Assembly (NCBI GenBank): GCA_030141605.1
Contig: JAQGDQ010000466.1
Coordinates: 1 to 64,000 of the forward strand
Direction: 5' to 3'
From: Tubiluchus corallicola
Taxonomy: Eukaryota > Animalia > Priapulida
DNA: 64,000 bases
A program made the translations under genes and the position numbers. Below, piece by piece: positions 8,104 to 36,925 of this stretch (its first letter is position 1; every line of letters starts with the position of its first letter). The notes below the pieces were generated by a model. That model did no database searches, was not told the DNA's origin, and worked only from the letters and a program-made list of their open reading frames with translations.

Positions 8104-9055
8104 TCACAAATAATATTCTAGTTTTTTCTGTATAAAGACAATATCTTGACTTAATTCGTCTTCTCGCGGAGGTAACAAAGTTACTTCCATATACAGCATA
8201 GTTTCACCAATAAATGCCCGGATGTTCTCTAACTTTGTCATTATCGCCTCCTGGTTAACATGTTTCCCATCTGTAGTATGATATTCTGTTGTCATTGCAT
8301 CAATTGTTAGTTTATCAATGGGTATTGTTTTTAAAACATCAAGTTCTGCTCCTTCAATATCGAGTGACAAGTAGTCAATGTGATTGTGACCAATGGCTAA
8401 CATTATTGAGCAAAAGGAAAACACTGAACTGTGTGAGTTCTAACATTTTCAGTGCAGTTTAACTTTTTTATCCGTTTTCTATGAACAGGATCCGTGTTAT
8501 TCTCTAACCCGCCTAACAACCCACACATTGTAAACCTTAGTCTTTCAGCCCTCTTACTAGGGCTTAAACAGGCATTGATAGAATAGGCATGCCGTTTCTC
8601 TTTTAGTAATTTATTAAACATTAGTGGGTTTGGTTCAATTAAGAGTCCTGTCCATCCGCGGTTCCTTTCAAAATACAAAGAATTGGAGATTACTCCATCT
8701 GCAGCACCACTTTCCACAAAAAAGCCTTTTCTCTTTTTTCTAAGTAGAATGTCTATAATCGTTGACTGAGACAGTTGTGAAGTATCATTTACTGGGCTTA
8801 AATTAGATTTCCGTGATGGACCAATCAGCCATGAATTTTTAATGTGATTTACTAATACCTGGTCATCTTCAGCTATCCTACCATGTTGAACATCTAGTAC
8901 AATATCAGAGCTAATAACTAAAAACAAAAGCGTACAATATTTGTTATTATCTTGGTTACGTCATCTTGAAAAACATTAATTATGCAAGCAGTTAATGCAA
9001 ACACAGCCACAGCATTAAATGCAACGTTAAATTGTTCACCACGAAATACTCTGTA
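8104..9055 (-). pseudogene. FkbM/Methyltransf_21 (Star-like) methyltransferase pseudogene, paralog of 32695-33648
   Basis: FFVESGAADG, SNSLYFERNRGWTGLLIEPNP and IDYLSLDIEGAE motifs; 1-nt frameshift near 8410 (CFPF|CSIML vs paralog CFPFYSIML) and a second break near 8920 separating a hydrophobic N-terminal segment. Confidence 0.85.
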
Positions 9056-11487: not shown

Positions 11488-12405
11488 ATGCGTCTTAAAA
11501 TTTTTAGATTTACTTGGTTAGTGTTTGTGGTGCTTCTGATATTGTGCGTGTGCAAATACAAATTTGAAAGTAAAGGTTACTTCCGAAAAGTAAATATGTC
11601 GCACATGTTGGCAACATATCAGGAGACAACAATATTTAAAATAGCAAAAGAAATAACAGCAAAAATCCTTTTAAGTCGTTTTGAACGAGATGCGCTATAT
11701 CGAACCCAGAAAATCAGCCATAGTGCTGTTATTACAGACAGGAAGGTTCTTTCCTACACTAAAGTTATCAGCTTTATTTCGTCAAAGAAAACATTTCCTT
11801 ATACAAGGTCGCTTTCTGTAGCAACTCAAACGTCTTGGGAGTACATGCATAATTTGCTGGATTTGGCTGAAATATTTGATGGACCAATATCTGCTGCCTT
11901 GTACGTTCCAGGGGAAAGCTACGATTTTGCAATTGATAGAATTTTGCTGTACCGGAAATGCAATCGGCGATTTCTGAATTTAGTTACAGTCTCCCTCTTC
12001 TTTCCTTCACACAAAAAACCTTCAATTTCAGGAAACAAAACCGCATCCAAATCAACATGTTACGATATTATGCTGCCTCCTGTTAATGGTCCTGATATGT
12101 CTCAGTATGGGCCATATCCTGTAAACGTTGGTCGAAACACGGCTCGTCAGGCTGTTTATACGGAATACATTTTGCTGTTAGATGTGGAACTCAGGCCTAC
12201 TCCAAACTTAGCAGAAAAGTTTTTCAAAATGTTAGATAGTTCATCTGTTTCTTGTGCCAATTCAGTGGGCTCCAAATTATCTTCATTCAGCAAAACTGTT
12301 TACGTTATACCGCTATTTGAAGTAGCCCTTGATAAACGACTGCCAAACAACAAGTCAGAGTTGCTTGAGTTGCTCAAAAACGAGGAAGCGGTTGTATTTC
12401 ATAAG
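11488..12405 (+). CDS. B4GAT1: B4GAT1-like (GT49) beta-1,4-glucuronyltransferase, coding exon 1
   Basis: N-terminal TM segment; SVATQ, FDGPISAALY, YPVNVGRNTAR, LLLDVELRP and VYVIPLFEV motifs; ends CATAAG|GTAATA, phase-0 donor. Confidence 0.88.
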
Positions 12406-15400
12406 GTAATATACTCACTCTCAAGTTAACATACATACTCACTCTAGTGTTGTTTTACAATACTCTTATAATGTTTAAGCATAATTATAAACATAAATGT
12501 TATGCATATTTTTTTAATCTCGTTTGGTGCAAAAACACTGGTGCCTTAAACAAACTGTGAAAGTCATGTATGAAGTTGTCGTTAAACACTTTGCAGAAAA
12601 CGAATGAACACTATATTACATATCTGCACAAAAACTGAAACACGTTTATTATACTAAATACACAGTAAAATACACAAGTAAAATGAAGATCACGACTGCT
12701 GCACTGAGAGAGTGACAGAGAGACAGTGTGTAGCACGACTGCACTGCACTGATCACTAAGATTTAGACAGTGGCTAGAAGTGAAATCCAGCCAGTATATA
12801 TAGGTAGAGAACTATGCAAAAACTTGGCTTCACATATCCCATTACAGTAAAAATAGGGGAGATCCAGTGAGTATGCATATTCACTGGACCGAGCAATTTT
12901 ACTAAGGGTGAGTTTAACTAGTAAAATGTTAAAGTGACTAATCAATAGATGGCAGCACCTAAAATATACAGTTACAACTTTCACACAAACATCACATTTG
13001 TATGTTTCTGGAAGACGATAACACATTCAGAAACCGTTTATCAAGGATACCTCAAAAACACCCAAAAACTTACTAGCAAAGCCCCGCAAAACTTTTTGCG
13101 GTATCTATCTATTTCTATTTTTTGAATGTGTCTATTTCAAAGAATAATTGCATCATCATCATTTTCCTCATCACTCATTTTCAATTTCAACTAGGATGAT
13201 GGTGAACAACATATAGGAACAAGACTTGCTTAATCGACCGACTTAATCGCATAATCATTAACGTTGAAAACAAAAACTCTTAGTCTATTAGGGTGCAACG
13301 CCAGCGTAATTTTCCCAACGTAAACTGCTATTTTCAAAACTGTTCGTTAAGATAGAGAAAAAAAAACGAACAGACAACACAAACTCTTAATACTGATTTA
13401 ATACCGAACTAATCAAAGATTTCAAAAACTGATAAAAAAGCTCATATAACAAATATATTCACTAACCTTGTGAAGTAATTACATTGATTAATTCTTAAAA
13501 GAATTGAAAATTGAAGTAAAATTACAGATGTTCCCAATTAAGGTAACTAAAATGTCAATACTATACACGTACAGTTTGGCCTGTCAAGCTTTTAGGCTCA
13601 AACTGTATGCATCAAAATTATTCTGTAATGTCATTTGCACATGTATATGCTGCATAAGAATCTTTTTTGTAATTTCTGGATAATATTGCTTTTATATATA
13701 TATATATTTACTTCGGCGGAACATTATCTGTATTTTTATTATAACTGTAAGATGCAGTGTGGAAATAAATAAACTTTAAAAAATTAACTTAAAAAACAAA
13801 CTTATATACAACTTTGCTTTGATATTATCATTTTTTTTGTATTCTCGCACTTTAAATTTTATCAATGCACAAATAATTCTTACAAATCCAGTCTATTTGG
13901 TACTCGCTCTACTCTTAAAGATCTGCGAAGTTTCGTTCACAAACGATGAGGCCTTTTTGCCAGGAGATGTGGTGATGCCACAATAGGAATAATTCCAGTC
14001 ATTGAATCAATAATAGTCATTGAATGCAGCAGTTCGTGCATTATTTTTCATTTCAGTAGTCTAACATTGTCTACTAAATTTTTTGCTTACTTGAATACCA
14101 AAATAAAAGTCTAATCCAGCAGTTTGAGGAAGGGGTTGAAGCCTTGCAGACCAGGAACTTGGGCCTATGCAGAGGTATTTTAGATATTGTGGTTTATCTG
14201 AAGTTTGTTCTGCATTTTGCACACTAGCAGCCGATAATAATTATGTACATCCATTTTGAAGTCAGACATTACTGAGGAATATGTGTAAAGCAAACAGTTT
14301 ATAAGAATTTCTATTTAGAACTAACTGTTGCATGGGACATATTTTGTTTGGAGCCACAAATGAGCTGCTGTGTTTAGGTTATGACAAGGTATCTTTTATA
14401 AGAATTAATTAATCAGGTTATAGATGTTTTGATAAGCAATTGTTTAAGCCGTTAGCGTTAATATTGTTTAATTCATATGTTAGTTTCGGTTTACAAACAT
14501 TTTAAGTGCATGTTTAATCTATCATTTCTGACTTAATTATTTGCGCGCTATGCAGCAAGTAATCGTAGGCATTATGCAGGATAACGCCTGTTTTACCAAT
14601 TCATTTGGAAGAATTAGATTTATACGATAAACTAATAAAATTTAATCATGGTCCATTCAGTGCGCTTTTATTACTTGCTTTGTGCTAGCTTGTAAAACAC
14701 AAGCGGCGGCACGTACCTAATATTAATAGGTGCTGCTTCAAAAAATTTCAGCTATTGTTTTAATACTGTGTAAAACGAACCAAATATATATTATTTTAAT
14801 GTTATAATTTACAATTGTAATTTAAATAAACAAACATACGAAATTTCATACACAAACTTGATAAAATCTTAAACAAAAAACATTTTTTGCTCACTAATAG
14901 CTTAAATTGTCGCAATTCAAGCTTGATCCACTCACGGTACTACAAACAACGAACTATGTGAGCGACAGCACTGCCAAACATTACGTTGCTGGAGTGCACT
15001 ATGCTGGTTCCGTAGAGGTATAAAGAAGTAACTAAAGAAAAGGTATAATTTTAAATATCGATAATAACGTGTGAAAATAATGCAGTTCCACAATACCTAT
15101 ACATGAGCCCCCACTGGAACTCAGTTCAACTTTAAGCCATACTACCATGGAAGGGCACCCATCGGAAAAAGAGTCGTATGTCTTGCTGAAATGCAATACA
15201 GCTTATAATAAAACTGCTTTTACTGTTTAGACAAAATTACGTGTTGCTTCACTTTGGAAGATCACGAGATCTGATTTACTCTAATGACTTGGTAGGTGCA
15301 GCTTGTAAGGCTTCTCACACATTCGTTAGGACTGTATTACTTAGCAACAGAAAGATGGGTTGTACAAATGGAATCTGAATTCAATTTTCTGCACTTTTCT

Positions 15401-16317
15401 ACCCTTTTTTATTTTTTATTTTTAGTACGTGTTTTTGAAAAGCTAGATAGTATTTGGAGAGATGTTTAACTTTCTTCTAGGTTGTCATTCTTCTAAGCCG
15501 CACTTGGTGGGGTGTGAGCATTGAGGAGATCCGCCAAATTGGCAAGACTAGCTGTGTTGTTAAGAGTGCACCACTTTTCTTAGTTTTTCCTTTTTCTATC
15601 ACCACAATTATTTATTCTGTGCATACTTGAATAGACATTAGTTCTTTGGCAAGGAATGGGTTAATTTTTAGCACACTATAAGAGAGTAAATTTGCAATAA
15701 AAATTTTCCATAATGTTGCTTACCAGATCTAAATTGCATCAATTTTCCTTAAAGTGTCAAAATCCGGAATAATGGTATGACATTATTTCTCGAATATTCT
15801 CAAATCAAGTAATGTGCCTTCCTCAACAAGCCTTGTGTGATCTCTTTCTCTTATAACTGTAGAGGCCTATTCCTGACCGACAGCGTGACTAACATGACTA
15901 TAAGAGAGACATTCATCTCCGTCTTTCATGTTTTGTCATTTCTCGGTTTCATTTTCCGCAACTGTCATGCTCAAAAATGACTGATGCTGTCTAGCAGGAC
16001 TTTTTGGCAGTAAGTGCCTGGTTATACTTGGGCTGATTTCCATGGAGTTTAATGTGAATATTTTAATTCTTGTATCCACTTGCTTTGGACACAACGGTAG
16101 CCCTAGTCAGCCTTGTGTCAGCCAAACGAAAATTTCTGATTCATTCAATTAGAACACTAAAATGGACTCTGAACTATCTGTTCTGTTTTGTTATTTAAAT
16201 TAATGAAGAAAAATAATCTTCTTATACAGTTCTTGACCACGCGTATTAAGATAAAATTCATCAATAATAAAATAATGTATTAGATTGCCTAATTTGTCTT
16301 ACCTAAATTTCTTTTAG

Positions 16318-16444
16318 AAAAATTGTGAAAAATGCCACTTGATTCCTTATGAGAACCTGTGGATGATTGGTGGTACGGAAGAAGACCTTACAGAATTCTA
16401 TATAACAAAGTGGATTCCACCCTACTGGGAGCCAGTCTACATAG
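16318..16444 (+). CDS. B4GAT1: B4GAT1-like gene, coding exon 2 (not in the ORF track)
   Basis: Acceptor TTTCTTTTAG, then KNCEKCHLIPYENLW...WIPPYWEPVYI(G), donor G|GTACTG; supplies the CxxCH and WEPxY motifs of GT49 enzymes in the correct phase. Confidence 0.88.
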
Positions 16445-18953
16445 GTACTGAAATTCAGAATCGTATATATTTAGTACAGTTATAGCACCTGAATCGCATA
16501 AAGATTTAATACCATGGGTCCAGTGGCGTCGTGCAATAGTAGGGGCTCGCCCCCCCCCAATTTTTTAGAAAATGTCAAAAATTTGAAGGGTGTCAGCGGC
16601 TCGTAATGAGACCAAAAAGATGTAAAATTGAGATAAAATGGGAATTCGTTTGAATTTCTTCAAATAGATGGCGTTGACGCAAATTTCACGCACGCGCCGT
16701 AGTTTCGCGACACCGCCACGTTTGAAATGCGTTTGCGACAAATTATTTAAATTTTCTGTGAAACTTTTGCCATTCTTTCGAGAGAGAAACATGAGAACTC
16801 GACGGCAAACGGTAAGCAAATTTATTTCCGACTTTTTGACACACAATAGCGGGCCACCGCTCCATAAATGCGAACAGTATGAGCGTTTCGGTACAGTAGC
16901 CCAATAATATTTTTTATCATTAAAGTTTGTCGCCGAGTTAAATTATTCTGACTGTTAATACGTGCCTGACCAGATGGTTTACCTGAAAGGCAGGATGTAG
17001 TTAAGAACGCTTCCGCGAGAAGACCATGCAAAATCGAAAAATTCCGGCACAAGGTTAGGTAAACCGATTCAGACCAAAGTTCGGGTATGAGGTCCACTAG
17101 TCACTAGTATTCACTATGTGAATCCGCTTGGCTCAACTCCTCATAGTAGCAGAGGTACGGCATAGGCCGATTTTCATGAAAAAATGCCTATTTTTCGCTA
17201 TTTTTTACTCATATTTGAAGAATTAGCCATGCAGCAACCACTGAGTTTTAATAGTTCTGATTCTGCACAGAACCCCCCTCTTTCGGCTCTACTGGAGGTC
17301 TTTAAGTTCGCATTATGCACAAGATGCAAATACTCAGTCATTTCAAAGTCTTATATCTCACCCACTGCGGGGGCGGGGACAAAAATATCGATATGTATGT
17401 GAATAGAGCATCCCATCTCACTATGCTGCAGTGACAATTTCGATGGAGCGAATTTCCACCAGAGCAGTATTGTAAATGACCCCTGAAAGAGGCATAAATC
17501 AGGGTGAAAATATAGGTAACAACGTTCATCAGAAAGCTTCGTGTAGGTAAACATGAGTTGTCAAAATACTTCAAAACATCACAAATATTCATCTTTGGCA
17601 ACTAGGGGCCTGTCCAGCAAATTGGCTAAACTACTGACAGGATTGGACTCCAGCATTCAAGATGGCGGCCACTGCTGAACTAAAATGTTCGTTTTCTGGG
17701 CTGTTTACCAGCGTTAAATGCGGCATTGTGACTAGTTATCCGCACGAAATGAGTATTGTGAATCTATTAACCTGTACTAAAGACACTAGACCACATTTAG
17801 AGCGCTTCCATCTTCAAACAAATGAAATATCTACGGAATGGAAATTGCTTCTTGCAAGGACTGGAAAATGTTTTATGTACTGTTTATTTTCTATGCTTTG
17901 TAGATGTTATGTACAGGTTATTACCTCGTTATTATTCATTGTCTTACATAGGCGTACAAACCAGGACACAAAGAAAATTGCCCTAAATCTGAGCGAATGC
18001 CCAAAAAATATGGGACAAACTTCCCCACAAAATATCATTTGTCCGGTGTTTTTTGACTGTAAAACATCGAAAATTTTTGTGCCATTGGCGCAATCATTCA
18101 ATCGCACTATTATCAATTTTTTGTCAGAAGTATCGATTTTATGCCACAAATAAATTTTGGGCGAAGAAAAATTTTCTGAGCTAACTATCACCGCCATCCC
18201 CCTAGAAGCGGCCCATACGCTTATATTGTCTCATGTTTAGACAGTAAGATTTTCGCTTTATCACTTTCCCCATGATATATTTGTCTATATTTCTGTATCT
18301 ATCTTCTAGTGCTAATCTACCTGCATCGATAATTCTTTCTCTATTATTTAGATATTATGGTATTGATTACCTGTACTACTCTTCAGTGATAGGATTATGC
18401 TGCTACAATAGGAACAGTATTTTGGACTTAGAGAAATTAATTCTGACTGAGTTTTGTAGTTTTTCATTTTTGTACTGATATTCATAATCTTTTATGTATA
18501 GCCATGAAGCTTATTCATATAAAAAGTATAAAAAATTAATGGATTTCTATTTTATATGTGTATACCGAATGTGGTCAGATTTTTTCGCTAGCAATGACTC
18601 TCAATCTTAACAATTGATACTTCTTTTATAATAGAGGGCTTATTGTTTATTCTTTCCTGGTATTCATTAGCGATTCAGTGTGTAGACAATGCCCTGAATC
18701 AGAGTCAGTCGGACTCGGTACTAGGGTCATGCATGATGTCCTGTCCTGAAATCCATCAGAAGAGACAATTATTTATATTTGTAGTCATATGAAAATTCCG
18801 ACCTAACTAAACCAATTTAAGATGAAATTCGCAAATTTCTAGCAATTTCCATGGCAAAGGAATCTACTGCTACTAGGAAATTAGAGCACTAGTCACAGAA
18901 AATGCAGGTTAAACGTGGCTAAATGTCTACTGTCATATATGACCTGAGCCAAG

Positions 18954-19347
18954 TGTTAAGGCCAGGGTGAACCTGACTTAATAAATTTTAATTTTGTAGC
19001 AAAGGTGGCTCCATCTAGTTAGAAAAAGTGTGGGCACTGACCTAGTTATGTTTGTCATTATGCTGTTCGGTTGAATTAGTGAACATGTCTTGTACAAGCT
19101 AGTGAAATTTTTCATTTAGATGTATGCCGCAACGATGTAAGTTTACTTCTATTAATTTTTATTTTTATTTTGATTTATTCATTGATTCATTATTCATTAA
19201 CAATCTAACTAAATTAGCCAATGTTAGTCACCTTTACCTTTCTATTTTTTGTTTTGAAATTTTGCAGAAATAAAGATCAGTGGTTTACATGAAACTCACC
19301 TGAGACTTTTGAAGATTTGTTATAAATTCCTCTCAGAGACACTAACA
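18954..19347 (+). repeat. 5' LTR (394 bp)
   Basis: TGTTAAG...ACTAACA; matches 26626-27019 with one C/T mismatch seen (GAAACTCACC vs GAAATTCACC). Confidence 0.97.
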
Positions 19348-20065
19348 TTTATTTATCGGCAAAATATCTACATGAGAAGTGTGCTATGAATGCAATAAAA
19401 CTATTTCGCCAAGCTGGGACACGGGCCGCCATTGCGAGGCTTCAAGGTCGCACGTACACTCACCTGGTTTACCTTGCTGCAAGTTGGAATTATTGATCGC
19501 CGCCTAGAGAAGCCAACGCGGGGTCAACTAGAGAACTTCCTATCTTCCACCTTGCTGCTAAAGTTAACTACTGGACAGGCAAGAACTAAAATAATTATGA
19601 ACTGAGTTAGATATTTCCCACTAAATATTAAAGTGAGAAATTAGTGAATGAACTCTGTGGTGAAAGCTGGGAAAACGATTTCAAACACTTGTTCAAATGT
19701 TTACCTCACAGTTTATGGCCTATAATGTTATTGAATGCTTGCTCTTACGCCTATTATAGCTAGTTTTGTATTGATCAGCTGTTTTAATGTTGTTGTCCGC
19801 TTTAGTTATTCTGCAGTACGTGGCCCAGATAAAATTTCTCCTATCCATGTTAAACGTGTGAAAATACCGTTATACAGCAACAGATATACCGAAAAATAGG
19901 TTGACAACTACAGTTACTAAATTGCACTTTCGTATAGGAGTTACAATATTTACTGGTGCACAATTACAGTTTGTAATTTTGAGTGTTGTACTTAATTTAT
20001 GATAATACTTCTCTTATTGATTTGCCAATAATTTTGCCAAATTATAGCAAATTAACAGGTACAAC

Positions 20066-20389
20066 ATGGATGATCTGGAAAAGAAAACTGTAAAAGAATT
20101 AAGAGAAATTCTCAAAGAAAAGGGGTTGTCCACGGCAGGCCTAAAAGAGCAGCTCATCTCACGCCTTAGAAATGCACTGGCCCAAGGAGAAAGTGACAGT
20201 GAGCAGGCAGCTTCTAGCCTTAAAAGTGCACGTAATGCTCAGAGTGTCAAGACAGTTGCTCATTCAGCTGCTTCATCTGCGTCAGTGCGGCGGGCAGCTG
20301 CCGAAGCCAAAAAAGCATCCCTCCTGATACAAAGGCAAGCTTTGGTTGATCAAGCAAAGCTTGAAGAAGAGGAACTTAAGCTTGAATAA
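20066..20389 (+). CDS. Gag N-terminal segment: SAP domain plus Ala/Ser linker and start of a coiled coil; ends at an in-frame TAA directly before the next ATG
   Basis: LEKKTVKELREILKEKGLSTAGLKEQLISRL matches the SAP consensus; same reading frame as the ORF at 20390. Confidence 0.85.
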   Translation: MDDLEKKTVKELREILKEKGLSTAGLKEQLISRLRNALAQGESDSEQAASSLKSARNAQSVKTVAHSAASSASVRRAAAEAKKASLLIQRQALVDQAKLEEEELKLE

Positions 20390-23300
20390 ATGAAGAAAAA
20401 TCTTGATTTAGAGAGGAAGCGGCTTGAGATTGACAGAAAGGTCCAAGAAGCAGAGGCACATGCTGCAATCTATGCTCAATTTGAGGAAGCACGCTCCAAG
20501 CGCAGCGACACCTTTGGTAAGGAAAAGGTCACTGACTGGGTAAATCGCGTTAAAGGCAAAGATAACGCAATATTGGATCAAGTATATGTAACTCTAGCTA
20601 CTAATGACACATATGCTAAGAGCGCTTTGGTATTAGCACAAACTCTTAAGGATAGTGGTACACGACGTAGTTTAGTCATTATGGTCACACAGAAGGGTGT
20701 ATCACCTGCTTTAGTTACTTTACTTCAGGATGTTTTTGACGAAGTTGAGGAAATTGAAGAATGGCGGAGTGGTGACAATGACGCAGTCCTCCTCCAGCAG
20801 CACCCAGAATTAGAGGTTACATATTCGAAACTCTACTGCTGGTCTCTAACACGTTATAATAAAGGAGTGTTTATGGAATCTGATACTATTGTGTTACAAA
20901 ATATTGATGAACTTTTCCAAAATGAAGAGTTTGCAGCAGCTCCAGATGTGGGATGGCCAGATCTCTTTAATAGTGGAGTATTTGTCTTTAAACCTAGTAT
21001 GGGTACATACAGACAATTGATATCCTTCGCTGCTTCACACTCCAGCTTTGATGGAGGTGATCAAGGCTTGCTCAATAAATTCTTTTCTTCCTGGACACGC
21101 CTTTCATTCGTTTATAACGTGACAACCGCCAGTACATACGGTTACTTTTTAACCCTGTCTGAGTTCAGGGACCGCTTGAAAGTTATTCACTTTATAGGTG
21201 ACATAAAGCCATGGCATTACAGCTATGACGAAAGAACTGGAGCTATTGTCTATTCATATGGGCAGGGATATGCGCATAAAGAAGAGTACGTAAGAAGATG
21301 GTGGAAAATCTTTTCCGTAAAAGTCAAACCTTTTCTTTCTAGTTATGCTCATGAAGAGGTCCTGCTATCCATGAACCCGCATGCAACTGAATATAAGCCA
21401 GAACCAAAAGCTGAATTTGATTCAGTTGAAAGGGCTTCAGCTCCTAGATGTTATAGATGCTGTGACCCTCAGATGCATGCATACCCTGAAACAACACCAA
21501 GGTTTGATGTAAGACCACATCAAACATATAATGTAAGCAGTCCACAGATGGAAAGAACTCCGCTGATGATAAGGCAGCCTCATACCGGCACAGCGTCTCC
21601 ATTAGCTTACAATTTTCCATTACCAAGCATAGAATTACCAGTGTTTGATGGAAATGAATTGGATTACACCCGCTTTATAAGAAGATTTGAAACGACAGTG
21701 GAGAACTACACTACTGACAGTGTTGCACGATTGGCACTATTGGTACAGTTCTGTAGTGAAAAAGTAAGAAAGTACATTGATTGTTGCCTTAACATGGAGC
21801 CAAACATTGGATATGAACGAGCCAAACAAATGTTAAAAGAAAGATACGGTGATGAGTTTATTATAACGCAAGCTTGGATAAGGAAAATCACAGAGTTCAA
21901 GATCATTAAGGCATCGGAACCAGAAGTGCTCAGGGATTATGCAGACACTCTAAGATGTTGTTTTAAATCTCTTGCTGCTATGGGTCACCTGGCTGAAATC
22001 AACACTCAGGGAAATTTGGCAAAAATTATTGACAAGCTCCCAGTGCACCAACATGCTACCTGGAGGAAAGAGGTGTATAAAATTCGTGCATCAGGCAAAG
22101 AACCACGTATCACAGACGTTGTCAAATTTGTTGAGATGATAGCCAAAGTGGAGAATGACCATATATATCGAAGGAAGTCACAGGAGATACCAGAGCGTTC
22201 CAAAACAAAACTAAGGTATAATCCTGTGAGAAATTTTGCAAGTTCTAGCAGTCTTCCACAACGTGAAGATGTTGATCAAAGTCAACAGAAGCAATTTCCT
22301 TGCAAGTTGTGTGAACGGTTCCATTCACTTCAGGCATGTCCCAAGTTTAAGCACTTGTCAATAAGTGAACGACAGGAGATTGTAAAACAACACAGCTTGT
22401 GCTTTAATTGTCTTAAACCAAACCACACAAGCCGTGCTTGCAGATCAACAAGACGGTGTGATGTTTGTAAACGAAAACACTCCGTTTTCCTGCACCTTAG
22501 GTCAGAAGAGCAGTGTAAGAAGTTGCAGGGTGGTCAAAAGACTGAAGTGCCAAAGGCTCCCGTTCCAGTACCTTCTGTAAAAGAAGAAAGCACAACTCCA
22601 CATCAGCGCTTTGAAAAGCCAGGCTCAAATGCTCAAAGTGGATACATCGACATTGATGCTAATCCAGGAAAGGGTACAGCTTTGCCCATATTGCCAGTGT
22701 TGGTGAATATTCCCGGAAAGCAACCAATTAAGACATTAGCACTTTTAGATAACGGCTCTACCAACACATTTTGTTCTGAGAAACTGTACCAAGAGCTTGG
22801 CATTAAAGGAAGAAATGATTTCCTGTCTTTGACAACACTTCAGGGAAAAGAATCTAAGACCCCTACCAAGATCGTTAGATTACAGGTCATGCCATGCGAT
22901 GGATCAAACTGCATCAATTTGCCAATTGTTTTTACTAGACCCTCATTAATGATGGATGCTGAATCTCTGCCAGATGTCAAACACATTGAAAGATGGCCTC
23001 ACTTGCAAGATATTGACCTGCCATGTAAGGATAATCTTCACCTAGACTTAGGTCTACTAATTGGACAAGATAACCCCGATGCATTAGCTCCTATTGAGTT
23101 CAGACGTGGACCTCTGAGTGCACCTTGGGCTACCAAAACGAGATTAGGTTGGACTTTGGATGGACCAGTTGGTTCTAATAAACAGAAAACCATCTGGTGT
23201 AACTCTATTCAGACTGGTAGCGATGACCTGGAAGAACTAGTGGAGAGGTTTTGGAAGCTAGAATCTTATACAGATGAGACTAAATTTTCGATTGAAGATA

Positions 23301-23794
23301 AAAGGGCCTTAAAGATTTGGGAGGACTCTGCTGTTCTGATGCCAGATGGTCATTATCAAATGAATATCCCATTTAGGTCAGAGAACCCTCAACTGCCAGA
23401 TAATTTAGTCATGGCTGAAACACGTCTTGAGAATTTGCGCAAAAGGCTTCAACGAGACAAAGTTCTTCGTGAAAAGTATACACAAGAAATTACCACGCTG
23501 TTGGACAGTGGGCATGCTGAACCAGTCGAAAATAACGACATTGGAATACCCGGAAAGGTGTGGTATCTACCCCACTTTGCAGTTCACCAAGAATCTCGTC
23601 CAGAAAAAACCAGAGTTGTGTTTGATTGTCGAGCCAGTTTTGCAGGAACTACATTGAACAAGGTTGTTCTACAAGGACCTGACTTTACAAATAAGCTGCT
23701 GGGTGTATTGTTAAGATTCAGAGAAAATCCAATAGCAGTCACAGCAGATATACAGAAGATGTTTTATCAGGTGAGGATTCCTATGGTGGCCTGA
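20390..23794 (+). CDS. BEL/Pao Gag-glycogenin-protease-(start of RT) polyprotein, 1134 aa open frame
   Basis: Coiled coil, glycogenin domain, capsid-like LPSIELPVFDG...F..RF (DUF1759-like), CKLC..H..C / CFNCL..H..C / CDVC..H..H knuckles, protease ALLDNGSTNTF and LLIGQD, RT start WYLPHFAV..KTRVVFD..LNKVVLQGPD..ADIQKMFYQV. Confidence 0.95.
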   Translation: MKKNLDLERKRLEIDRKVQEAEAHAAIYAQFEEARSKRSDTFGKEKVTDWVNRVKGKDNAILDQVYVTLATNDTYAKSALVLAQTLKDSGTRRSLVIMVTQKGVSPALVTLLQDVFDEVEEIEEWRSGDNDAVLLQQHPELEVTYSKLYCWSLTRYNKGVFMESDTIVLQNIDELFQNEEFAAAPDVGWPDLFNSGVFVFKPSMGTYRQLISFAASHSSFDGGDQGLLNKFFSSWTRLSFVYNVTTASTYGYFLTLSEFRDRLKVIHFIGDIKPWHYSYDERTGAIVYSYGQGYAHKEEYVRRWWKIFSVKVKPFLSSYAHEEVLLSMNPHATEYKPEPKAEFDSVERASAPRCYRCCDPQMHAYPETTPRFDVRPHQTYNVSSPQMERTPLMIRQPHTGTASPLAYNFPLPSIELPVFDGNELDYTRFIRRFETTVENYTTDSVARLALLVQFCSEKVRKYIDCCLNMEPNIGYERAKQMLKERYGDEFIITQAWIRKITEFKIIKASEPEVLRDYADTLRCCFKSLAAMGHLAEINTQGNLAKIIDKLPVHQHATWRKEVYKIRASGKEPRITDVVKFVEMIAKVENDHIYRRKSQEIPERSKTKLRYNPVRNFASSSSLPQREDVDQSQQKQFPCKLCERFHSLQACPKFKHLSISERQEIVKQHSLCFNCLKPNHTSRACRSTRRCDVCKRKHSVFLHLRSEEQCKKLQGGQKTEVPKAPVPVPSVKEESTTPHQRFEKPGSNAQSGYIDIDANPGKGTALPILPVLVNIPGKQPIKTLALLDNGSTNTFCSEKLYQELGIKGRNDFLSLTTLQGKESKTPTKIVRLQVMPCDGSNCINLPIVFTRPSLMMDAESLPDVKHIERWPHLQDIDLPCKDNLHLDLGLLIGQDNPDALAPIEFRRGPLSAPWATKTRLGWTLDGPVGSNKQKTIWCNSIQTGSDDLEELVERFWKLESYTDETKFSIEDKRALKIWEDSAVLMPDGHYQMNIPFRSENPQLPDNLVMAETRLENLRKRLQRDKVLREKYTQEITTLLDSGHAEPVENNDIGIPGKVWYLPHFAVHQESRPEKTRVVFDCRASFAGTTLNKVVLQGPDFTNKLLGVLLRFRENPIAVTADIQKMFYQVRIPMVA
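20576..21337 (+). other. Glycogenin (GT8) catalytic domain embedded in frame in Gag
   Basis: VTLATNDTYAKSALVL, KLYCWSLTRYNKGVFMESD, AAPDVGWPDLFNSGVFV, SFDGGDQGLLN, YN...Y.Y, VIHFIGDIKPW and WW.IF, all collinear with animal glycogenin as recalled from the family. Confidence 0.96.
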
Positions 23795-26535
23795 TGGGGA
23801 TTTGGAAAAGACGCCTAAAGTTTACAGAATGACTGTACATGTATTTGGGGGTGTATGGTGTCCGAGCATAACCACCTTCTCACTTCAAAGAACCGCCAAG
23901 GAGAACCGCAGTTTGTATGAAGAATCGGTCATCCAGACAATTCTTAGGAACTTCTATGTAGACGATTGTTTGTCCTCCTTTAAGACGAATGAGGAAGCTA
24001 TCCATACTGTTCAACAGTTATTAGAGCTTCTGCATCTCGGCGGATTTCACTTGACCAAGTGGAGCAGCAATAGTAAACAGGTTATCCAGTCCATACCCCC
24101 AGATGAAAGAGGAAAGCAGATCAAGGATCTAGATTTAGAAGCCAGCTCTTTACCCACTGAAAAGGTGCTCGGAATCTGCTGGAACATGGAAACTGACATG
24201 CTCACCATCCAGATTAAAGACAAGATCAAGCCAGCAACCCGTCGAGGACTTCTGAGCTTACTGTCTTCAGTATATGATCCGCTTGGTATGTATATTGAAT
24301 GCAAATATCCTTCAAGCTAAGCTACTATTCCAAGAAGAATGCCGGCAAGGCAAAGGCTGGGATGATGAACTTCAGCCTCAAGTAAGGAGACAGTGGACAA
24401 ACTGGCTATCTGTGTTGCAGAATTTGCAAGCAGTTCAACTTGACCGCTGTTATACACCTTCACAGTTTGGAGATGTAGAGGTATACCAACTGCATCATTT
24501 TTCAGATGCCTCTGAAAAGGCATATGGAACTGTGACTTACCTTCGAATGACAAATTCATCTGGAGATGTATTATGCAGTTTCGTCATAAGCAAATCCCGC
24601 CTTGCGCCTTTAAGAGGTGGAATATCAATGCCTCGTCTGGAGCTTTCAGCTGCTGTGCTGTCAGCCAAGATAGATCACATGCTCAGGAAGGAATTCACCA
24701 TAAAACTAGCTGAATCAGTTTTCTGGACCGATAGCACCTCACTTTGGGATACATAAACAATATATCCGCCCGATATAAAACATTTGTGTCAAATAGATTA
24801 GCAATCATCCATGACTTGTCTTCACCACATCAGTGGCGTCATGTACCTGGAAATGAAAGCCCTGCCAATGATGCGTCTAGGGGTCTGCCTGCAGATAAAC
24901 TTGTAGCTGATACACTTTGGCTGCACGGACCTTCCTTTTTTATGAACCAGAAGCCAGCTGGCCATGTTTCAAAGTAGAAAGGGCAATAGAAATTTCTGAT
25001 CCAGAACTAAAGAAAAATCAGTCACAGGCTTATGCAGCTGTTTGTCAACATGATGATGTCATTGACAAGTTGTACCAACATTACAGTTCTTTCTACAGGC
25101 TAAAGAAAGCAGTGGCATGGTTGTTACGCTTCAGAGATCCTAAGAAGTAGGCCTGGAAATCAACCAATCCAGCAAGCAAGATCCAAGTTGACAGTAGAAG
25201 AACTGAAAACCGCTGAGAATGCCATTATCAAGCACATCCAAAGATGTTACTTCTCTGAGGAATATGGAAGCTTGTCTATGGGACAACCGCTTCACAAAAG
25301 AAGTAAAATAGCTGCTTTAGATCCATACATCTTTACTGATGATACAATAAGAGTCGGTGGTCGACTCACTAGAGCATTTATCTGTGAGACTGCAAAGCAT
25401 CCAGTGATTATTCCCAAGGATCACCAAGTTGCCACTTTGATTATTAGAAACTGTCATGAACAAAACGGCCATGCCGGGCCAGAACACGTGGTGACACTTA
25501 TAAGGACTTCCTATTGGATTATTGGAATTAGGCCTCTAACTAAAAGAGTTCTTCGAGCCTGTCGCATTTGTCGTCGATTATTCGGGAAGTCGATGCAGCA
25601 AAAATGTCTGATCTCCCAGTAGATCGCATCACGGGAGGTCGTGCCTTCAGCTCAGTTGGCATAGACTGTTTTGGTCCCTTTGAAGTGGTCAGAGGAAGAA
25701 CAAGAGTAAAACGTTATGGTTGCATTTTTACCTGTGCCGCCATAAGAGCTGTGCATCTTGAAGTACTTGCCTCTATGGAGTCTGATTCATTTATCCAAGC
25801 CTTGCACAGGTCCATTGCTAGGAGCGGTAAACCTGACATACTAAGATCTGACAGGGGAACTAACTTTACTAGTGCCGAAAAGGAACTACGGCAATCATTA
25901 CAAGAGCTCGACCAAGAAAAGATCCCTGCAGCTTAAGACAGATGAACATCCAATGGATCTTTAATCCACCCACAGCTTCACACTTTGGAGGGTTTTGGGA
26001 ACGACTTATAAGATCCGTCAGGCGAATATTTGCGGGTGTGCTAAATCAACAGACAGTTGACGATGAGAGGTTAGCCACTCTCTTTTGTCTTGTAGAATCC
26101 ATACTAAACAGCAGACCGCTTACAGTCACGTCAAGTGATTTCAGAGATGCCGAACCACTAACTCCGAACCATATGTTATTATTGCACTCCAACTCTTTGC
26201 CAGCTCCTGGTATCTTCTCAATAGCTGACAGATACAAAAGAAAATGGCGCCAGACACAGTATCTTGCCGAAATTTTCTGGTCAAGATGGTATAAGGAATA
26301 CCTTCCAACATTGCAATCCAGAACAAGATGGCTTAGAAAGCATAACAACTTGAAAGTTGGAGATGTAGTTCTCATTTGTGATAAAGTTCCAAGGAATCAG
26401 TGGGTTCTTGGATGTGTTGATGATGTTCATGCCAGTGATGATGGGATTATTCGATCTGTTACAGTAAAAACCAGTAACAATGCTTCTTTAGTACGCCCCA
26501 TTGCTAAATTATGTTTAATTGAGAGCCTCGGATAG
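23780..26535 (+). pseudogene. BEL/Pao pol (RT, RNase H, integrase) broken by seven frameshifts
   Basis: FLWW, NFYVDD, HHFSDAS, PRLEL, FWTDS, H..H..C..C zinc finger, GIDCFGPF, SDRGTNF, FWERLIR and W..EYL motifs spread over ORFs at 23802, 24274, 24744, 24917, 25188, 25568 and 25942, each in a different frame from the previous one. Confidence 0.93.
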
Positions 26536-26615
26536 AGGCTAGTTGTAATATTTTGTTATACTGTTTTGTTATAGGCATTATAAATAACTATTGTAAATGG
26601 AGTAAAACCCCATAT

Positions 26616-26625
26616 AAGGGGGGAG
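26616..26625 (+). promoter_or_regulatory. Polypurine tract (PPT)
   Basis: AAGGGGGGAG immediately 5' of the 3' LTR. Confidence 0.9.
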
Positions 26626-27019
26626 TGTTAAGGCCAGGGTGAACCTGACTTAATAAATTTTAATTTTGTAGCAAAGGTGGCTCCATCTAGTTAGAAAAAG
26701 TGTGGGCACTGACCTAGTTATGTTTGTCATTATGCTGTTCGGTTGAATTAGTGAACATGTCTTGTACAAGCTAGTGAAATTTTTCATTTAGATGTATGCC
26801 GCAACGATGTAAGTTTACTTCTATTAATTTTTATTTTTATTTTGATTTATTCATTGATTCATTATTCATTAACAATCTAACTAAATTAGCCAATGTTAGT
26901 CACCTTTACCTTTCTATTTTTTGTTTTGAAATTTTGCAGAAATAAAGATCAGTGGTTTACATGAAATTCACCTGAGACTTTTGAAGATTTGTTATAAATT
27001 CCTCTCAGAGACACTAACA
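26626..27019 (+). repeat. 3' LTR (394 bp)
   Basis: Direct repeat of 18954-19347, followed by TSD CCAAG. Confidence 0.97.
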
Positions 27020-29882
27020 CCAAGTATGTCTACTTTTTACACATGGATGGAATTACTATGGAAAGTAAAAAAGTGTGTTGATATAGCAGTTTTTTCTAAC
27101 AGTGCCCCCTTTATATAATGTCATTCATGATATTATCTCAGCTCGTGCGTTTTCATGAAATTTAGAATATAGATTTGTCACTTATAATCCAGCATATAGA
27201 TAGAAAAAATATTGAAAAACTACAAAAAAGGCGAATTTTGCTGATTTTTGTGAAATTTTAAAATGCCAGTACTAAATACTGAAACAGGCTCCAGCGAATT
27301 TTCTTTTTTATATTATTAGTGTGGATGATGGTTAACACATACATGAAAACCAGAAGTTCTGTAGCCCCGCAGTGGGCGAGTTATGAGCCTTACAACTTAA
27401 CCTCTCCCTGGACTCTTAACAAAGGGCCGAATTTAAAAAATCCCGTTCTCTGATACTATTAATAGTATGTCAGAAAAAGTTTGGATATCAAAAGACAATG
27501 TCTGGGTCTATGTACCAGCCAACTTACATCGACCCATCTATAAGAGTTTATACAGGAGAAAAAGTTAAAATAACCCCCCCAAAATAGCGATTTTTTGCCT
27601 CTTTTGAGGTCAATTTCTCTGCCAATAGTAGCTCGATCGATTTGATATCTTGATTACATGGTTTTGGGGGGTCGCTCTTCATGTTAGAAAAAAATGATAT
27701 AAATTCGTCACCCCTCATGTGCCACCTCCTGCATGGTGCTCTCGCGGACTCGTTCTTAATAGGTGAGAAATTAGACAAGAATATAAAAATTGTGTCGCTG
27801 TATATTGCTTTTTACGCTTTAACCTCTTTGCTTTATCTTGGTGTCATACCTGTCATTGCTTTTCTACTATACCCCTATAGTCATCCCGTAACGCATTCAT
27901 GTTATGTTGTTGGCTTTGACTTGTGCTGCTGAATCATTTCAAAATAACGTTTGTTGTTTGTTCAACATCTTCATCTTGCCTCGGAATAAAAAGTTTAGTA
28001 ATTATTAAAAATATTAAGTTAAAGGTACATATGTTTTGGTAGTCGTATTTTCGCCGAATCTTTGGATTCCTGACAGCTAATAAATACTTCATTAAATTTT
28101 AATTTAATTTTTAATTTTAATTAAGTTTCCGTTGCTATAGCTTTAGGTTAAATGCCAGTTGGGAATAAATAAATCGTTTTTCTTGTACGCAAAATACTGG
28201 TGTATGAATTCAAAATTATACGTTTTTTAAACAGTTAAGTTCCGCCATTATATACAGTCGGGCCCCCCTAATTTTTTTTTTTGGTGCACGACGCCCCTGC
28301 ATGGGTCCCACATGCACCAAAAACAAAGATCTCTGCAGATAATTTGGTTCTCAATAATGCAACCCATACAACGGCTGTAGTTGTTGATAACAACGCAGAA
28401 CTTCTTATGTTTCTTATTGCTTATGTTTTAATGCAGACTTGCATCATTGTCAGAGTCTCTCATTACATCAAACAGAGCAAAAGTAAAGAAAACCACTTTA
28501 TCACCAATAGACATTGCTGTCCTGACTGTTAGCTAGAAAGGGACTTACTGGAAGCGTTTATGATTATTAGAAAAACAGCATTTTAAGATTGTGCAAGGTC
28601 AAGATAATTCCAAATGGCTGCCGACGCAGCGTTAAAGTCAAAATAACTCAATCAGCAAACATTGTTGACTGCAATAATGTATTAACTGTACAGCTGATAT
28701 AAAAGTGCATGTGCTTGCTTACACATGGTTATGGTTGTCTCTCAAGATCTCGTGATTCCTTCCGCCACTCCTGAGATGACTGTGGAGACCAGCATTGCTT
28801 GAGACAGACTGCACAGAAAACGTTGTTGCGGGTGTTACCTTTGCTCGTCACAAATTGTTGCATGTCTTGATTGCGTTTGCTGGCTAAATTTTTCAGGTGA
28901 GAAGATTCTTCGCAACACAACTTGAATCTCACTGTATGTGATCTATATTTAGGAAAACCCTCCACATTTGTTCTAGCCATTTTGAAATTCTTTTTAAAAC
29001 GCGATTTTTAGCAAAATGAGCTTATTAGACTGCGATAATGTTAAATGCGAATAACATACTGGCATATAATCGAATTAAATCTTGGTCAAAGGTCATGAAG
29101 TAGGCGGGGCTTCTTTTATTTTTCTTTAGGATCCATCTGCTCCTATAATTTTTGAGCTAGGACCACAACATTTTGCCACGATCGATTGACGTCTGACCTA
29201 TGGGTCATGGGTTAAATTGTTCCCAGTTTCGATTTTGTTGTGTAGCACAGTTCACATGTAATCAAGCAACAACACGTATTCAATAAAGTATAAATTTCGA
29301 AAAAGGCTAGCATCTTTGCAAGGAAAATGTTTCGTAGCTTTTTTTGCAACATCTTCACTTTCTGACCACAACAGAAACACTGCCACCTTATTGTTTACTG
29401 TTGTTTTAAATGTCTAATTTTATAAAGTATGCTTTGTATTAAATAAAATATTCATTATAAAAAAGAACACTGTTCGAGGGTAGGATTTTTCCTTTAAAAA
29501 TATCTGCTTCTATTGGAGTAAGTGACTCTTGTCAGGATCGACTTTGAGGGAAGACGTTGGCATAAGACTTCGATTGAATCCTGTCTCTCCAGTAAATGGT
29601 AGTACCTAAGAAAAGTGCAAACAAAGTTAGAGTGGGTTTTGAATAAAATAGCTGCTGGACAATGGGATGGGACAGGGAGTAAGAGGAAGGACAGTTGTCA
29701 CGGGATGGACATTTAATGCTCTGAGTAGTATTTTTGTTTCTTGTGTAACCCATACAACATGTTTTGTCCACATATATTGCAATTTGTTAAATTAATGTTT
29801 ATGTTAATGGATTATATTATGCTATTGGAATGATGTCTTTTAGAGACAATAAATTACAAATTTTTTGGAAAATTTATTTCAG

Positions 29883-32694: not shown

Positions 32695-33648
32695 CTATTC
32701 AAGTTTACGCAGAAATATTACATCACGGCCCACAGTTATTTCATCTCCTGGAGGGATAGTTGCCACTTCTTCGTAAAGTTTTGTCTTAGCCATGAATTCG
32801 CGAATGCTGGCCAATCTTAACTTGGTTATTTCTGTGTCTAAACTTTTCCCATTTGTTGAAGCATATTCTATTGTCATGATGTCTATCGTGAGTTTATCAA
32901 AAGGGATAGTTTGAAGTACTAAAACTTCATCACCTTCGATATCCAATGAGAAATAGTCAATGTGGTTGTGCCCAGTAGCTAGCATTATAGAGTAAAAAGG
33001 AAAACATTGAACAGTTTGAATTTGTGCAAAGCCCCTAAACCAACTTCTGATCCTTCTGTCACGATTAGGGTCCCTTGCATTTGTTAAGCCTCCGAGCTTG
33101 CCAGCTGCAGTAAAACTTAGTTTATCTGCTCTTTTGTTTGGACTTAAACACGAATTTATTAAATATGCATTCCGCCGTTCTGCCAGCAATGTCTTAAAAA
33201 ACAAAGGATTTGGTTCCACCAAAATACCCGTCCAACCTCGATTTCTTTCAAACAAAAGAGAATTGGAATTGGTTCCATCAGCTGCACCTGATTCAACAAA
33301 GAATCCACCTTTTCTTTGTCTCAGCAAATTATCAATAAATGTTGCTGTTTCGTATTCTGACGTATCGCTCACCATTCCTTTTCCTGGGTTATTAGGTGGT
33401 CCAATCAACCATTGTTTTTTTATATGAGTGACAAGCAATTTGTTATCATACTCAGTGCCTCCATGCTGCAGCAACAATATTTCGTCTGAGTTATACAGCC
33501 TTTCAAAACAAACATCTTCTGTTTCTAGTGTCTCGATTTTCCAGTTCACAACGCAAATTGAAGCAATAGTTGCACTTAGTACAAATATTAATTTAGCGTA
33601 GTTAAAAATATAGCTAGTTAATAGCCTTTTTGTTGCTGCTTGAGTCAT
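32695..33648 (-). CDS. FkbM/Methyltransf_21 (Star-like) type II membrane methyltransferase, intact single coding exon, 317 aa from the first ATG
   Basis: TM segment LIFVLSATIASICVV; FFVESGAADG, SNSLLFERNRGWTGILVEPNP and HIDYFSLDIEGDE motifs. Confidence 0.9.
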   Translation of the reverse strand: MTQAATKRLLTSYIFNYAKLIFVLSATIASICVVNWKIETLETEDVCFERLYNSDEILLLQHGGTEYDNKLLVTHIKKQWLIGPPNNPGKGMVSDTSEYETATFIDNLLRQRKGGFFVESGAADGTNSNSLLFERNRGWTGILVEPNPLFFKTLLAERRNAYLINSCLSPNKRADKLSFTAAGKLGGLTNARDPNRDRRIRSWFRGFAQIQTVQCFPFYSIMLATGHNHIDYFSLDIEGDEVLVLQTIPFDKLTIDIMTIEYASTNGKSLDTEITKLRLASIREFMAKTKLYEEVATIPPGDEITVGRDVIFLRKLE

Positions 33649-35464
33649 AATAACAGTTTCTGCCCAATAAGATTTACAGATTTTAGGTAGAAACGTACTA
33701 CTTAGGCTAGTTATAACTTTGTTCACAGGTCAACGTAATGACGAGTTAATTCATAAAACGAAAGAGCTAAAATATCTTTACCATGTCATCTAAGATTTAT
33801 TTTTATGTCACAGTTACAAAGACATGTCTCAGCGAGGTAATATGTAAGGAGATTATCAAATACTGTAAAGAGTCTCCACTAGCCGCTTGATCATTTAGAG
33901 GCACTCAACGGCTTTCCTCGTCTCTTGTGTAATAATGTTACAAACTGCGTCAGGGAATTGTACTATTGGGACGAATAAAGTAAATCGAAACAGCTAAACG
34001 TAAAAACACGCACATACATACCTACGAACTGGAACAACGCAATGTTGCGTAAACCTAGAAAAATAAAACAATATTTTTTCTCTATAATCGCGAAGAATTT
34101 AATGTTAGTAAGTTGTACCAGTATTTAAGGTCAAGCTGTTCTGCCAGGTGCTTAAAGAATTTCAGGATATTAAATTTATCGTAATATACAACATTGTATA
34201 GCCACAATATGACGAAAGTAATAAATCAGTCAATAAATAAATAATAACGCGTGCCCGGCATTGACCAGCAATATTAAACCTTAGGCTAAAACTGCTGCCA
34301 CACTCGCATACTTACACATAATCTGTTATCGTAACTGATCACGTAATCCTGTTATTACTCTACGGGTTCAATTTAACGCATTTGTTACCGGAAGTGCCTG
34401 TTCTTATATAACCCCACATTTAAATGCTACTAAGCAATTATGCAATTAATTTGTATTTTACAGCTGCCATTTTCGACAGTTATACTTTATGTCTAGAATT
34501 CTGTGTGTAACGAAAAGAATTGTTCATACGCGTAACTACAAGTGTTGCTAGGCTATTCAAAAACAGGATTACATGAGACGATTTTTTTATTTTTTTATCA
34601 TGAGACTCTTGAAATAGAAAAATAATAGAATAGAAATTGACTTTTCCTTGTGTACATATAAAACACGACACAAATGTGTTATTTTCAATATGGTCCAAGG
34701 GTTAGAATGCATACAAAAGTGAAATTACAAATAAATAAAAAAATACATTAATACTACTAAAAATGCCGCAGTATACTACCTTAAACTAAGATTACAAAAC
34801 TCAAATAATTCAACTCAAATAATTATAAAATCTTGTAATTATATAAGCTAAATCTTAAGTATTGTATAAGTCATTGACTAATGTCAAACACAACTAATCA
34901 TCAATTAAGAAAATATAAATGAAATAAAAGAATAAAACGTGCAAACTATGTTGTACATTACAACTAGGAATGATTTGCATGAATAACAAAAAACTGTAGG
35001 ACCAGATTTTCGCATAAAAGAATGGGTAACCAACTGCACTGCAGATGAAATCGTAATCTCCACAAGGACACCTGAAACTGTAAAAGTTGGCTTAACTTAG
35101 CTTGCTTACTCACAAAGGGTGCTGCATCAAGTGCCTTGAGCTGTGCCCTTTACAATTTTGGCATAGCCGCATCTGTTAACCCACGAGGAAAAAGGTTAGT
35201 GCAGAAAACGTGGTTGGCCAATTAATCGGATTAGGATGAACTGGGATGGTTTAAAGAGAGAATGGTGCGAGTGGTTCACGAACTTGCGAAAGCAAATGAA
35301 AGAGATGAATTAGTCGGGCTGCCTTACAAACATTGCCGAAAAAGAGTTAGAAGGGGTAATTTGTGATGCAAACAGAGATGCATTTTGTTGAATAAAAATC
35401 ATGCAAGCTTACACTTCTTGACATCTACTATTTTATGAATGAACTTTACGTTTTCTTATAATAT

Positions 35465-36369: not shown

Positions 36370-36925
36370 CAAATTGACCTTGCATGTCATCTGTGAAAGT
36401 GACAACATCAAAGATGTCTGGAACTCTCCCAGAAGATTTAATATTATGAATCTCTTTCCTCCAGTGAGAATGAATGCCAATGGGCAATTTGTCAACGATT
36501 TATACGAGATTTCCTTAAGCATTAATCTCGGACAAATAACCTAAACTTGACAGAATTTCATAACAAGTGCGCAACAAATTTTAATATTCCTGTAATGTCT
36601 GATATTCCGCAGCCTTCATGGGTTTGAAATCCGAAATCTGTTTGATCCATGCTTGAGTGATATTAAATTCATTTCCAAACCGCTTCTTTAGCATACGCTT
36701 TGCTTTTGCGTAACCAACAACTGGGTCCACAACACACAGCAGTCAATATAACGTTTTACTTTGTCACTGCAAAACTGAAGAAGGAGTGTCAATCTGGCAA
36801 TGTTGTCAGTTGTGTAATTCTCAACCGTTGTTTCAAACTGTTTAATGAAGCGGCAATACTGCAATGGGCTACCATCGAACTTCTCTATCTCGATACCAGG
36901 CAATGGAAAACCATAAAACTGGTAG
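36370..36925 (-). mobile_element. Isolated BEL/Pao gag (capsid) relic related to the 18954-27019 element
   Basis: FPLPGIEIEKFDG..FETTVENYTTDNIARL..QFCSDKVKRYIDCC, then ITQAWIKQI..IVDKLP..WRKEI..PDIFDVV; collinear with Gag at about 21610-22140; contains stops and a frameshift. Confidence 0.88.

Follow-up and report, generated by a model that had tools for sequence, protein, structure and literature searches.

In-frame glycogenin catalytic domain within the Gag of a BEL/Pao retrotransposon from the priapulid Tubiluchus corallicola

The stretch of DNA analysed here (the window) comprises 64,000 nucleotides of Tubiluchus corallicola (GenBank assembly GCA_030141605.1, contig JAQGDQ010000466.1, positions 1 to 64,000, forward strand) and harbours, at 18954-27019, a BEL/Pao long terminal repeat (LTR) retrotransposon of 8,066 bp in total, whose Gag contains the catalytic domain of glycogenin (20576-21337). 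Glycogenin moves glucose from uridine diphosphate glucose (UDP-glucose) onto its own tyrosine, while its C-terminal domain binds glycogen synthase (passages of PMC11046441 and PMC12267440). Capture of the domain and its carriage by the element family can be stated with high confidence, and the pattern of residue retention suggests that the enzyme residues are probably under constraint. It is tentatively proposed that the domain may be kept for Gag pairing and self-glucosylation on the particle surface, with association of particles with glycogen granules.

The translated insert aligns end to end with the entire glycogenin-1 catalytic domain of human and rabbit (E ~1e-79 in PDB), shares about 50% identity with animal glycogenin-1 (comparison structures PDB 3u2t, 3t7m and 1ll2) and matches the Pfam profile Glyco_transf_8 (E 5e-18); its identity as glycogenin is far beyond chance. 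The AlphaFold model of the domain, with a predicted local distance difference test (pLDDT) score of 88, superposes on glycogenin with a template modelling (TM) score of 0.91. The domain shares its reading frame with the capsid, three Cys-His knuckles and the protease, is devoid of introns, and has boundaries coinciding exactly with those of the catalytic domain. Residues were numbered by alignment to glycogenin, and of 13 listed catalytic or dimer residues, 12 are retained, including the equivalents of Tyr195 (the acceptor tyrosine), His212, Lys218, Asp160 and Asp163; the dimer residues Trp128, Asp160 and Tyr197 are also present. The metal-binding DxD motif reads E-S-D in the window copy and is canonical in sister contigs of both samples. 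The initial annotation of a complete, intronless, in-frame glycogenin domain of about 254 amino acids holds for the catalytic domain, while the C-terminal synthase-binding tail is missing. The base composition of the domain was uninformative, and Rfam returned 0 matches.

Two loops of the element domain are shorter than in animal glycogenin-1. The loss of 6 loop residues ahead of the acceptor arm is also found in 15 of 360 host glycogenins (P0107, P0132, P0138, P0140, P0214, P0217, P0244, P0264, P0330, P0339, P0340, P0344, P0353, P0361 and P0365), which belong to crustaceans, an annelid, a tardigrade, a rotifer and an aphelid. This deletion was apparently gained several times among hosts, and the short loop was rejected as a marker of the donor lineage, having arisen in several host lineages that are not related to one another.

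In order to place the fusion in the element family, contigs of four public sequencing runs (X1 to X4; two samples, two studies) were compared with the window, with X1 and X3 examined more closely (among 15 of 31 pieces and 12 of 13 loose ends listed, some records being filtered); contig depth served as a hint only, not as copy number. Two other runs, X5 and X6, contained hardly any of the words searched, which does not prove absence, and no RNA run was among those listed as containing the sequence. Contigs of X1 (20120-20615) and X3 (20104-20934) span the 5' Gag-glycogenin junction, contigs of X4 (21094-21709) and X3 (20956-22137) span the 3' glycogenin-Gag junction, and cover extends across gag, glycogenin and pol. 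Run X1 contains two or more sub-variants of the glycogenin domain, one of which matches the window exactly at 21240-21343. Furthermore, runs X1 and X2 contain a deleted copy joining the element leader to mid-glycogenin, and since this copy (about 10% diverged in X2) bears a piece of glycogenin, the cargo is older than the youngest burst. Both junctions being bridged in two samples of two studies, the fusion is regarded as a family trait and not an assembly artefact; the claim of the initial annotation that the domain transposed with its element is supported by its carriage in the family, the diverged deleted copy included. A decayed relative in X1 tracks the Gag linker at 20501-20570 and departs a few bases before the glycogenin start; it is either the sole candidate for a glycogenin-less sister or just a truncated copy.

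Two further kinds of glycogenin-like DNA were noted in these contigs. One matches only the conserved motif at 21044-21077 (34 nt, 4 differences; X1 and X3) at a depth of 485 in X3 as against 13-18 for the element, and of about 1440 (back-calculated) as against about 580 in X1; it may come from an amplified host gene or from another repeat family that carries glycogenin. The other is about 80% alike over 20929-20999 (71 nt, 14 differences), with a depth of 170 in X1 and 38 in X3, and could be the host gene or else belong to an older sister family.

The carrier is a BEL/Pao element by every feature of the International Committee on Taxonomy of Viruses (ICTV) that was examined, except the primer site. 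The criteria for Belpaoviridae comprise LTRs of 0.2-1.2 kb, a length of 4.2-10 kb, a polypurine tract of about 10 nt before the 3' LTR, an 18-nt primer-binding site for tRNA-Arg or tRNA-Gly, a Gag with capsid and nucleocapsid, and a Pol in the order protease, reverse transcriptase, RNase H and integrase (PMC8742986). LTR size, total length and polypurine tract of the element all lie within these ranges; no primer-binding site is evident downstream of the 5' LTR, where the first TGG occurs only at 19415. The two LTRs (394 bp each, TG..CA termini) are identical at 393 of 394 positions, with 1 mismatch. Pfam matches follow the BEL/Pao order (SAP, Glyco_transf_8, DUF1759, aspartyl protease, Peptidase_A17, integrase, DUF5641), and profiles specific to Pao elements are among them (Peptidase_A17, E 2e-37; DUF1759, E 1e-5; DUF5641, E 7e-29). 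The paired LTRs, polypurine tract and 5-bp target-site duplication described in the initial annotation were all recovered, as were the SAP, Glyco_transf_8 and DUF1759 profiles that it expected. The features, with + denoting the forward strand, are as follows.

18949-18953: left target-site duplication, CCAAG
18954-19347 (+): 5' LTR, 394 bp, TG..CA, compared with the 3' LTR
19348-20065 (+): 5' leader, tRNA primer-binding site not recognised
20066-20389 (+): start of Gag with SAP domain, Ser-rich stretch and first part of the coiled coil, ending at an in-frame stop
20072-20179 (+): SAP domain (PF02037, E 7e-12)
20390-20575 (+): remainder of the Gag coiled coil and a short linker, resembling the N-terminal coils of related Gags
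20576-21337 (+): captured glycogenin catalytic domain of glycosyltransferase family 8 (GT8), 254 codons, in frame, without introns
21338-21619 (+): Gag linker containing an LNP/MNP-x-A motif (which we take to be PAM2-like), also present in related Gags
21620-22075 (+): capsid region (Pfam DUF1759, E 1e-5)
22301-22495 (+): nucleocapsid, three Cys-His zinc knuckles
22709-22933 (+): aspartyl protease (Pfam E 0.0025, under the curated cut-off)
22934-24735 (+): reverse transcriptase and Pao Peptidase_A17 region, with frameshifts near 23780 and 24300
24736-26535 (+): integrase region, with frameshifts near 24740, 24935, 25130, 25600 and 25927
25422-25577, 25679-25906 and 26242-26517 (+): integrase zinc finger, integrase core and DUF5641
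26616-26625 (+): polypurine tract, 10 nt, abutting the 3' LTR
26626-27019 (+): 3' LTR, compared with the 5' LTR
27020-27024: right target-site duplication, CCAAG

The element sits within a very deeply covered host repeat (about 18708-18953 and 27020-27300), and contigs of runs X1 and X3 connect both flanks across its place; as the flank is itself a deeply covered repeat, these contigs show the insertion and not which carrier has it. In run X1, the LTR bins are far deeper in contig cover than the interior (about 12,000-18,000 versus 500-1,400), which hints at numerous solo LTRs or at related families.

The Gag-Pol domain order is colinear with that of 3/3 full-length relatives (tblastn). Of the Gag-Pol relatives found, the nearest show 38-41% identity, with echinoderms among their sources, and the nearest named ones are echinoderm elements (36-38%). 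These relatives share the order of coil, variable linker and capsid, a SAP start being present in 2 of 27. Coil and capsid are 382 amino acids apart in the element; among the relatives, 14 of 30 allowed this spacing to be measured, giving 57-168 (median 97), so that the linker of the element is about 285 amino acids longer than their median. Since this stretch is longer and all core parts are present, the domain was inserted with no core part being lost.

Various searches for a comparable fusion were negative. None of 54 Gag-Pol relatives carries a GT8 domain (top 8000 candidates scored), and none of the best 120 of 519 glycogenin-domain matches carries a Gag or Pol profile; that search covered lengths of 623-1985 amino acids, so that a full fusion, estimated at about 2150, lies outside its range. 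The best 120 of 805 matches of a glycogenin-domain protein search are at most 51% identical and include no fused protein, and neither do the best 150 of 10,931 in a further search (22 matches scanned, 0 with retroelement domains). Comparison of 366 glycogenin proteins with the SAP, coil, linker and Gag-Pol parts gave 0 matches; 0 of 9 metagenome loci contain Gag or Pol, and there was no match to viral contigs or in the Atlas. The titles and abstracts listed for glycogenin with retrotransposon, LTR, transposable element or gag mention no glycogenin-Gag fusion, the transposable element databases Repbase, Dfam and GyDB being outside this scope. In a different BEL/Pao Gag relative (P0383), the Gag is followed by the N-terminal domain of carnitine palmitoyltransferase (E 7e-21), which is either a real fusion or a gene-model artefact.

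The capture appears to be old. The closest known glycogenin among 361 host domains is 52% identical, and the median identity is 48% versus 58% among the hosts themselves. In a quick tree (114 of 361 rows, with a long-branch warning), the element domain stands as a long unplaced branch (end branch 0.95), and no donor lineage is resolved by that tree. Among the X1 and X3 contig pieces listed, no DNA near-identical to the domain was found other than element copies, and only the two short glycogenin-like pieces (71 and 34 nt) reach a likeness of at least 80%. An identity of at most 52%, a long branch and the absence of a close donor among these pieces together fit an old capture. Neither outcome that the initial annotation named as refuting was observed: the junctions are spanned, and near-identity of the domain to a host glycogenin did not emerge from those pieces.

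Residue retention falls with column conservation, from 64 of 75 near-invariant positions through 27 of 38 and 24 of 62 to 16 of 77 variable ones. The near-invariant retention of 85% compares with a neutral null (stops excluded) of 73% at a DNA difference of 13% and 60% at 21%; neutral drift is rejected if the donor was at least 13% apart in DNA (P 0.008), and more so at 21% (P 2e-6). For the 12 of 13 key residues, P is 0.012 at 60% retention and 0.10 at 73%. An old capture with subsequent constraint would fit the identity of at most 52% and both retention figures. The open frame of the insert is uninformative on selection, because translation of Gag-Pol demands it anyway.

A mechanism can be proposed in which a spliced host glycogenin mRNA was captured long ago by template switching inside a particle, the domain being inserted into the flexible Gag linker before the capsid. 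Gag would then pair through a predicted glycogenin-type dimer. Going by the layout of retroviral Gag, a domain placed ahead of the capsid would face outward, towards the cytosol, where UDP-glucose is. On this predicted outer face, the domain would glucosylate its own tyrosine with cytosolic UDP-glucose, and the short glucose chains might be extended by host synthase. As the element is devoid of the synthase-binding tail, the synthase would have to be reached via free primers or pairing with host glycogenin. Particles could thereby be tied to glycogen granules and be localised or shielded in glycogen-rich cells such as oocytes, which is speculative. The roles suggested in the initial annotation (a glucan coat, association with oocyte glycogen, evasion of defence, help with assembly) are likewise speculative. 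The two-copy model of the domain scores 0.47 as against 0.01 for the best of 3 controls (run agreement of at least 74% of contacts, pLDDT of at least 81). In a microbial benchmark, 21 of 30 pair-solved proteins and 0 of 23 single-chain ones attained the dimer-score mark; in a eukaryotic benchmark, the corresponding figures were 17 of 29 (7 of 16 for animals) and 0 of 30, with only 1 of 7 among proteins without an older solved relative. The glycogenin dimer being already solved, passing this mark shows likeness only and may be memory.

In a more far-reaching form, which is considered unlikely, the particles themselves would prime glycogen: glycogenin domains, present in their hundreds on the capsid surface, would self-glucosylate, and host enzymes would form a shell of glycogen by which the particle is concealed and carried into the energy store of the egg. 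More than one family would be involved, with the deep DNA matching 21044-21077 in both samples as a sister family.

A number of observations weigh against retention for self-glucosylation at the particle surface. The window copy is itself defective: an in-frame stop (20387-20389) cuts off the SAP domain from the remaining gag, and pol contains about 7 frame changes (near 23780, 24300, 24740, 24935, 25130, 25600 and 25927), so that this copy cannot be autonomous. The synthase-binding tail finds no match in the six frames of the window (best E 1) with a tail profile that was built from 112 host tails and recovers 307 of 366 glycogenin proteins, and the shortened C-loop is without an equivalent of Pro238, a residue linked to autoglucosylation in passages of PMC12267440. 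The missing tail and altered C-loop argue against an efficient stand-alone primer and would weaken the notion of a self-sufficient ‘glycogen seed’. With respect to selection, the 64 of 75 retained residues fit drift if the donor was within about 10% (the neutral null fits at a difference of 9%, P 0.21), and a model of uniform loss is not rejected (P=0.09). Retention of invariant residues is lower than in 99% of 360 host glycogenins, which implies relaxed constraint. Differences between copies inside the domain amount to 10 synonymous and 17 replacement changes, with 27% synonymous expected under neutrality (P=0.18). The initial view of a host mRNA captured and kept as cargo stands for the capture of a spliced glycogenin and its carriage by the family, while retention by selection is only probable, the variation among young copies being indistinguishable from neutral. 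Finally, the donor gene was not seen among the contig pieces listed, and the fusion is observed in one family only.

Main contigs differ from the window at the gag stop (runs X1, X2 and X3) and at the places of the frameshifts (7/7 in X1; 5/7 listed for X3). Many differences are private to the window copy, several within short homopolymer runs, and some of the breaks lying in such runs could be assembly errors. Near-identical LTRs around a damaged interior suggest that a defective template was likely moved recently by the proteins of an intact helper. These private differences are also what an assembly chimera or a one-off insertion in the window copy would explain; such an origin is scarcely credible, since contigs of two samples from two studies span the junctions, cover extends across gag, glycogenin and pol, and an X1 contig matches the window exactly at 21240-21343.

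Variation among young copies that is indistinguishable from neutral, the sub-host retention at invariant sites and the fit of uniform loss would be expected of a neutral passenger, i.e., a glycogenin retrocopy in a tolerant Gag linker, held open only for Gag-Pol translation and slowly decaying. The linker of relatives does vary between 57 and 168 amino acids, and mRNA capture is routine for LTR elements, Pao and BEL included (passages of PMC5131818). This explanation is nevertheless rather unlikely, as no near-identical donor was found in the contig pieces listed from two samples, retention lies well over the neutral expectation for a donor at least 13% apart, the boundaries are exactly those of the catalytic domain, and the 762-bp insert persisted in copies about 10% diverged. 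The missing tail bears on another possibility, in which the element protease frees the domain as an effector or decoy that pairs with host glycogenin or consumes UDP-glucose, shifting the glycogen metabolism of the replicating cell. Absence of the tail is expected of a dominant-negative form, the dimer residues are retained, linkers flank the domain within a polyprotein that includes a protease, and human GYG2, which glucosylates poorly, suppresses synthase (passages of PMC12267440). Sister contigs, however, retain the acceptor tyrosine and all metal and sugar ligands, which is beyond the needs of a decoy, making a released effector improbable. A purely structural role, with dimerisation aiding Gag assembly and catalysis being irrelevant, would agree with a predicted dimer at the known interface (possibly a memory of solved structures) and with loss of the canonical DxD in the window copy; it is quite improbable, because active-site residues without a role in dimer contacts are retained, sister contigs keep the DxD, and 54 of 54 relatives do without the domain.

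Elsewhere in the window, remnants of other, decayed BEL/Pao elements lie at 36383-36903 (minus strand) and 5346-5872 (plus strand); they comprise one piece of a capsid and one of an integrase. Long single-exon open reading frames for glycan-modifying enzymes lie nearby (3467-3934, 8403-8960, 11464-12429, 32695-33729, 43188-44132 and 62403-63575) and comprise a weak galactosyltransferase-like piece, a glycosyltransferase family 49 (GT49) enzyme, an FkbM-type methyltransferase and two sulfotransferases; 8403-8960 is a look-alike fragment of the FkbM-type methyltransferase, judged by eye and without a Pfam match.

The capture of a host domain is of a known kind, while a metabolic cargo is without precedent. 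The targets of domains known to have been taken up by LTR retrotransposons are mostly DNA, RNA, chromatin or ubiquitin pathways. A carbohydrate-storage enzyme in Gag would provide a first link of a retroelement particle to glycogen metabolism, and the particles of this family are reported to be little known (Belpaoviridae; PMC8742986). The fusion also serves as a natural experiment on glycogenin deprived of its synthase-binding tail. Even as a neutral passenger, the insert would be an unusually clean capture of a whole domain that left gag-pol complete.

LTR-mediated retrocopies of animals are likewise intronless partial mRNA copies inside LTR elements, with Pao and BEL among the carriers, and such retrocopy formation is, by analogy, the likely route of capture. 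Drosophila retrocopies replace part of the element open reading frames, are non-autonomous and remain near-identical to the parent gene (passages of PMC5131818), whereas the present element has kept every gag and pol domain, with its insert in frame and no close parent seen among the contig pieces listed. Accessory host-like domains in or beside the Gag-Pol frame are also carried by the giant Gypsy elements of planarians (Burro; passages of PMC6431247) and by rotifer elements with extra open reading frames (PMC5408684), but their cargo differs (MATH, SUMO-like, BCL-2, dUTPase, nucleases and esterases); all 3 mentions of ‘glyco’ in the passages of PMC6431247 concern fusion or envelope glycoproteins and no glycosyltransferase. 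For BEL/Pao, the main text of PMC3118150 contains no mention of PHD. Viral carriage of the GT8 fold is known from giant viruses and baculovirus p13 (BFVD), but these enzymes are at most 24% identical among the top fold matches, belong to large DNA viruses, are non-orthologous to glycogenin and do not lie in Gag. With animal glycogenin-1, the element domain shares the fold, acceptor tyrosine, active-site and dimer residues, and it differs in its location within Gag, its lack of the tail and its two shorter loops. A parallel in architecture is CopiaMBD of a centipede and spiders (passages of PMC6673714). There, the carrier is a Copia element and the cargo a DNA-binding reader of obvious use, with Ka/Ks < 0.1, several species and demonstrated activity; here, a BEL/Pao element carries a metabolic enzyme, with 10 synonymous to 17 replacement changes among young copies of two samples. 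In both cases, a host domain lies in frame in the polyprotein of an otherwise complete LTR element and forms a long branch in the tree of its host family, with its key residues kept.

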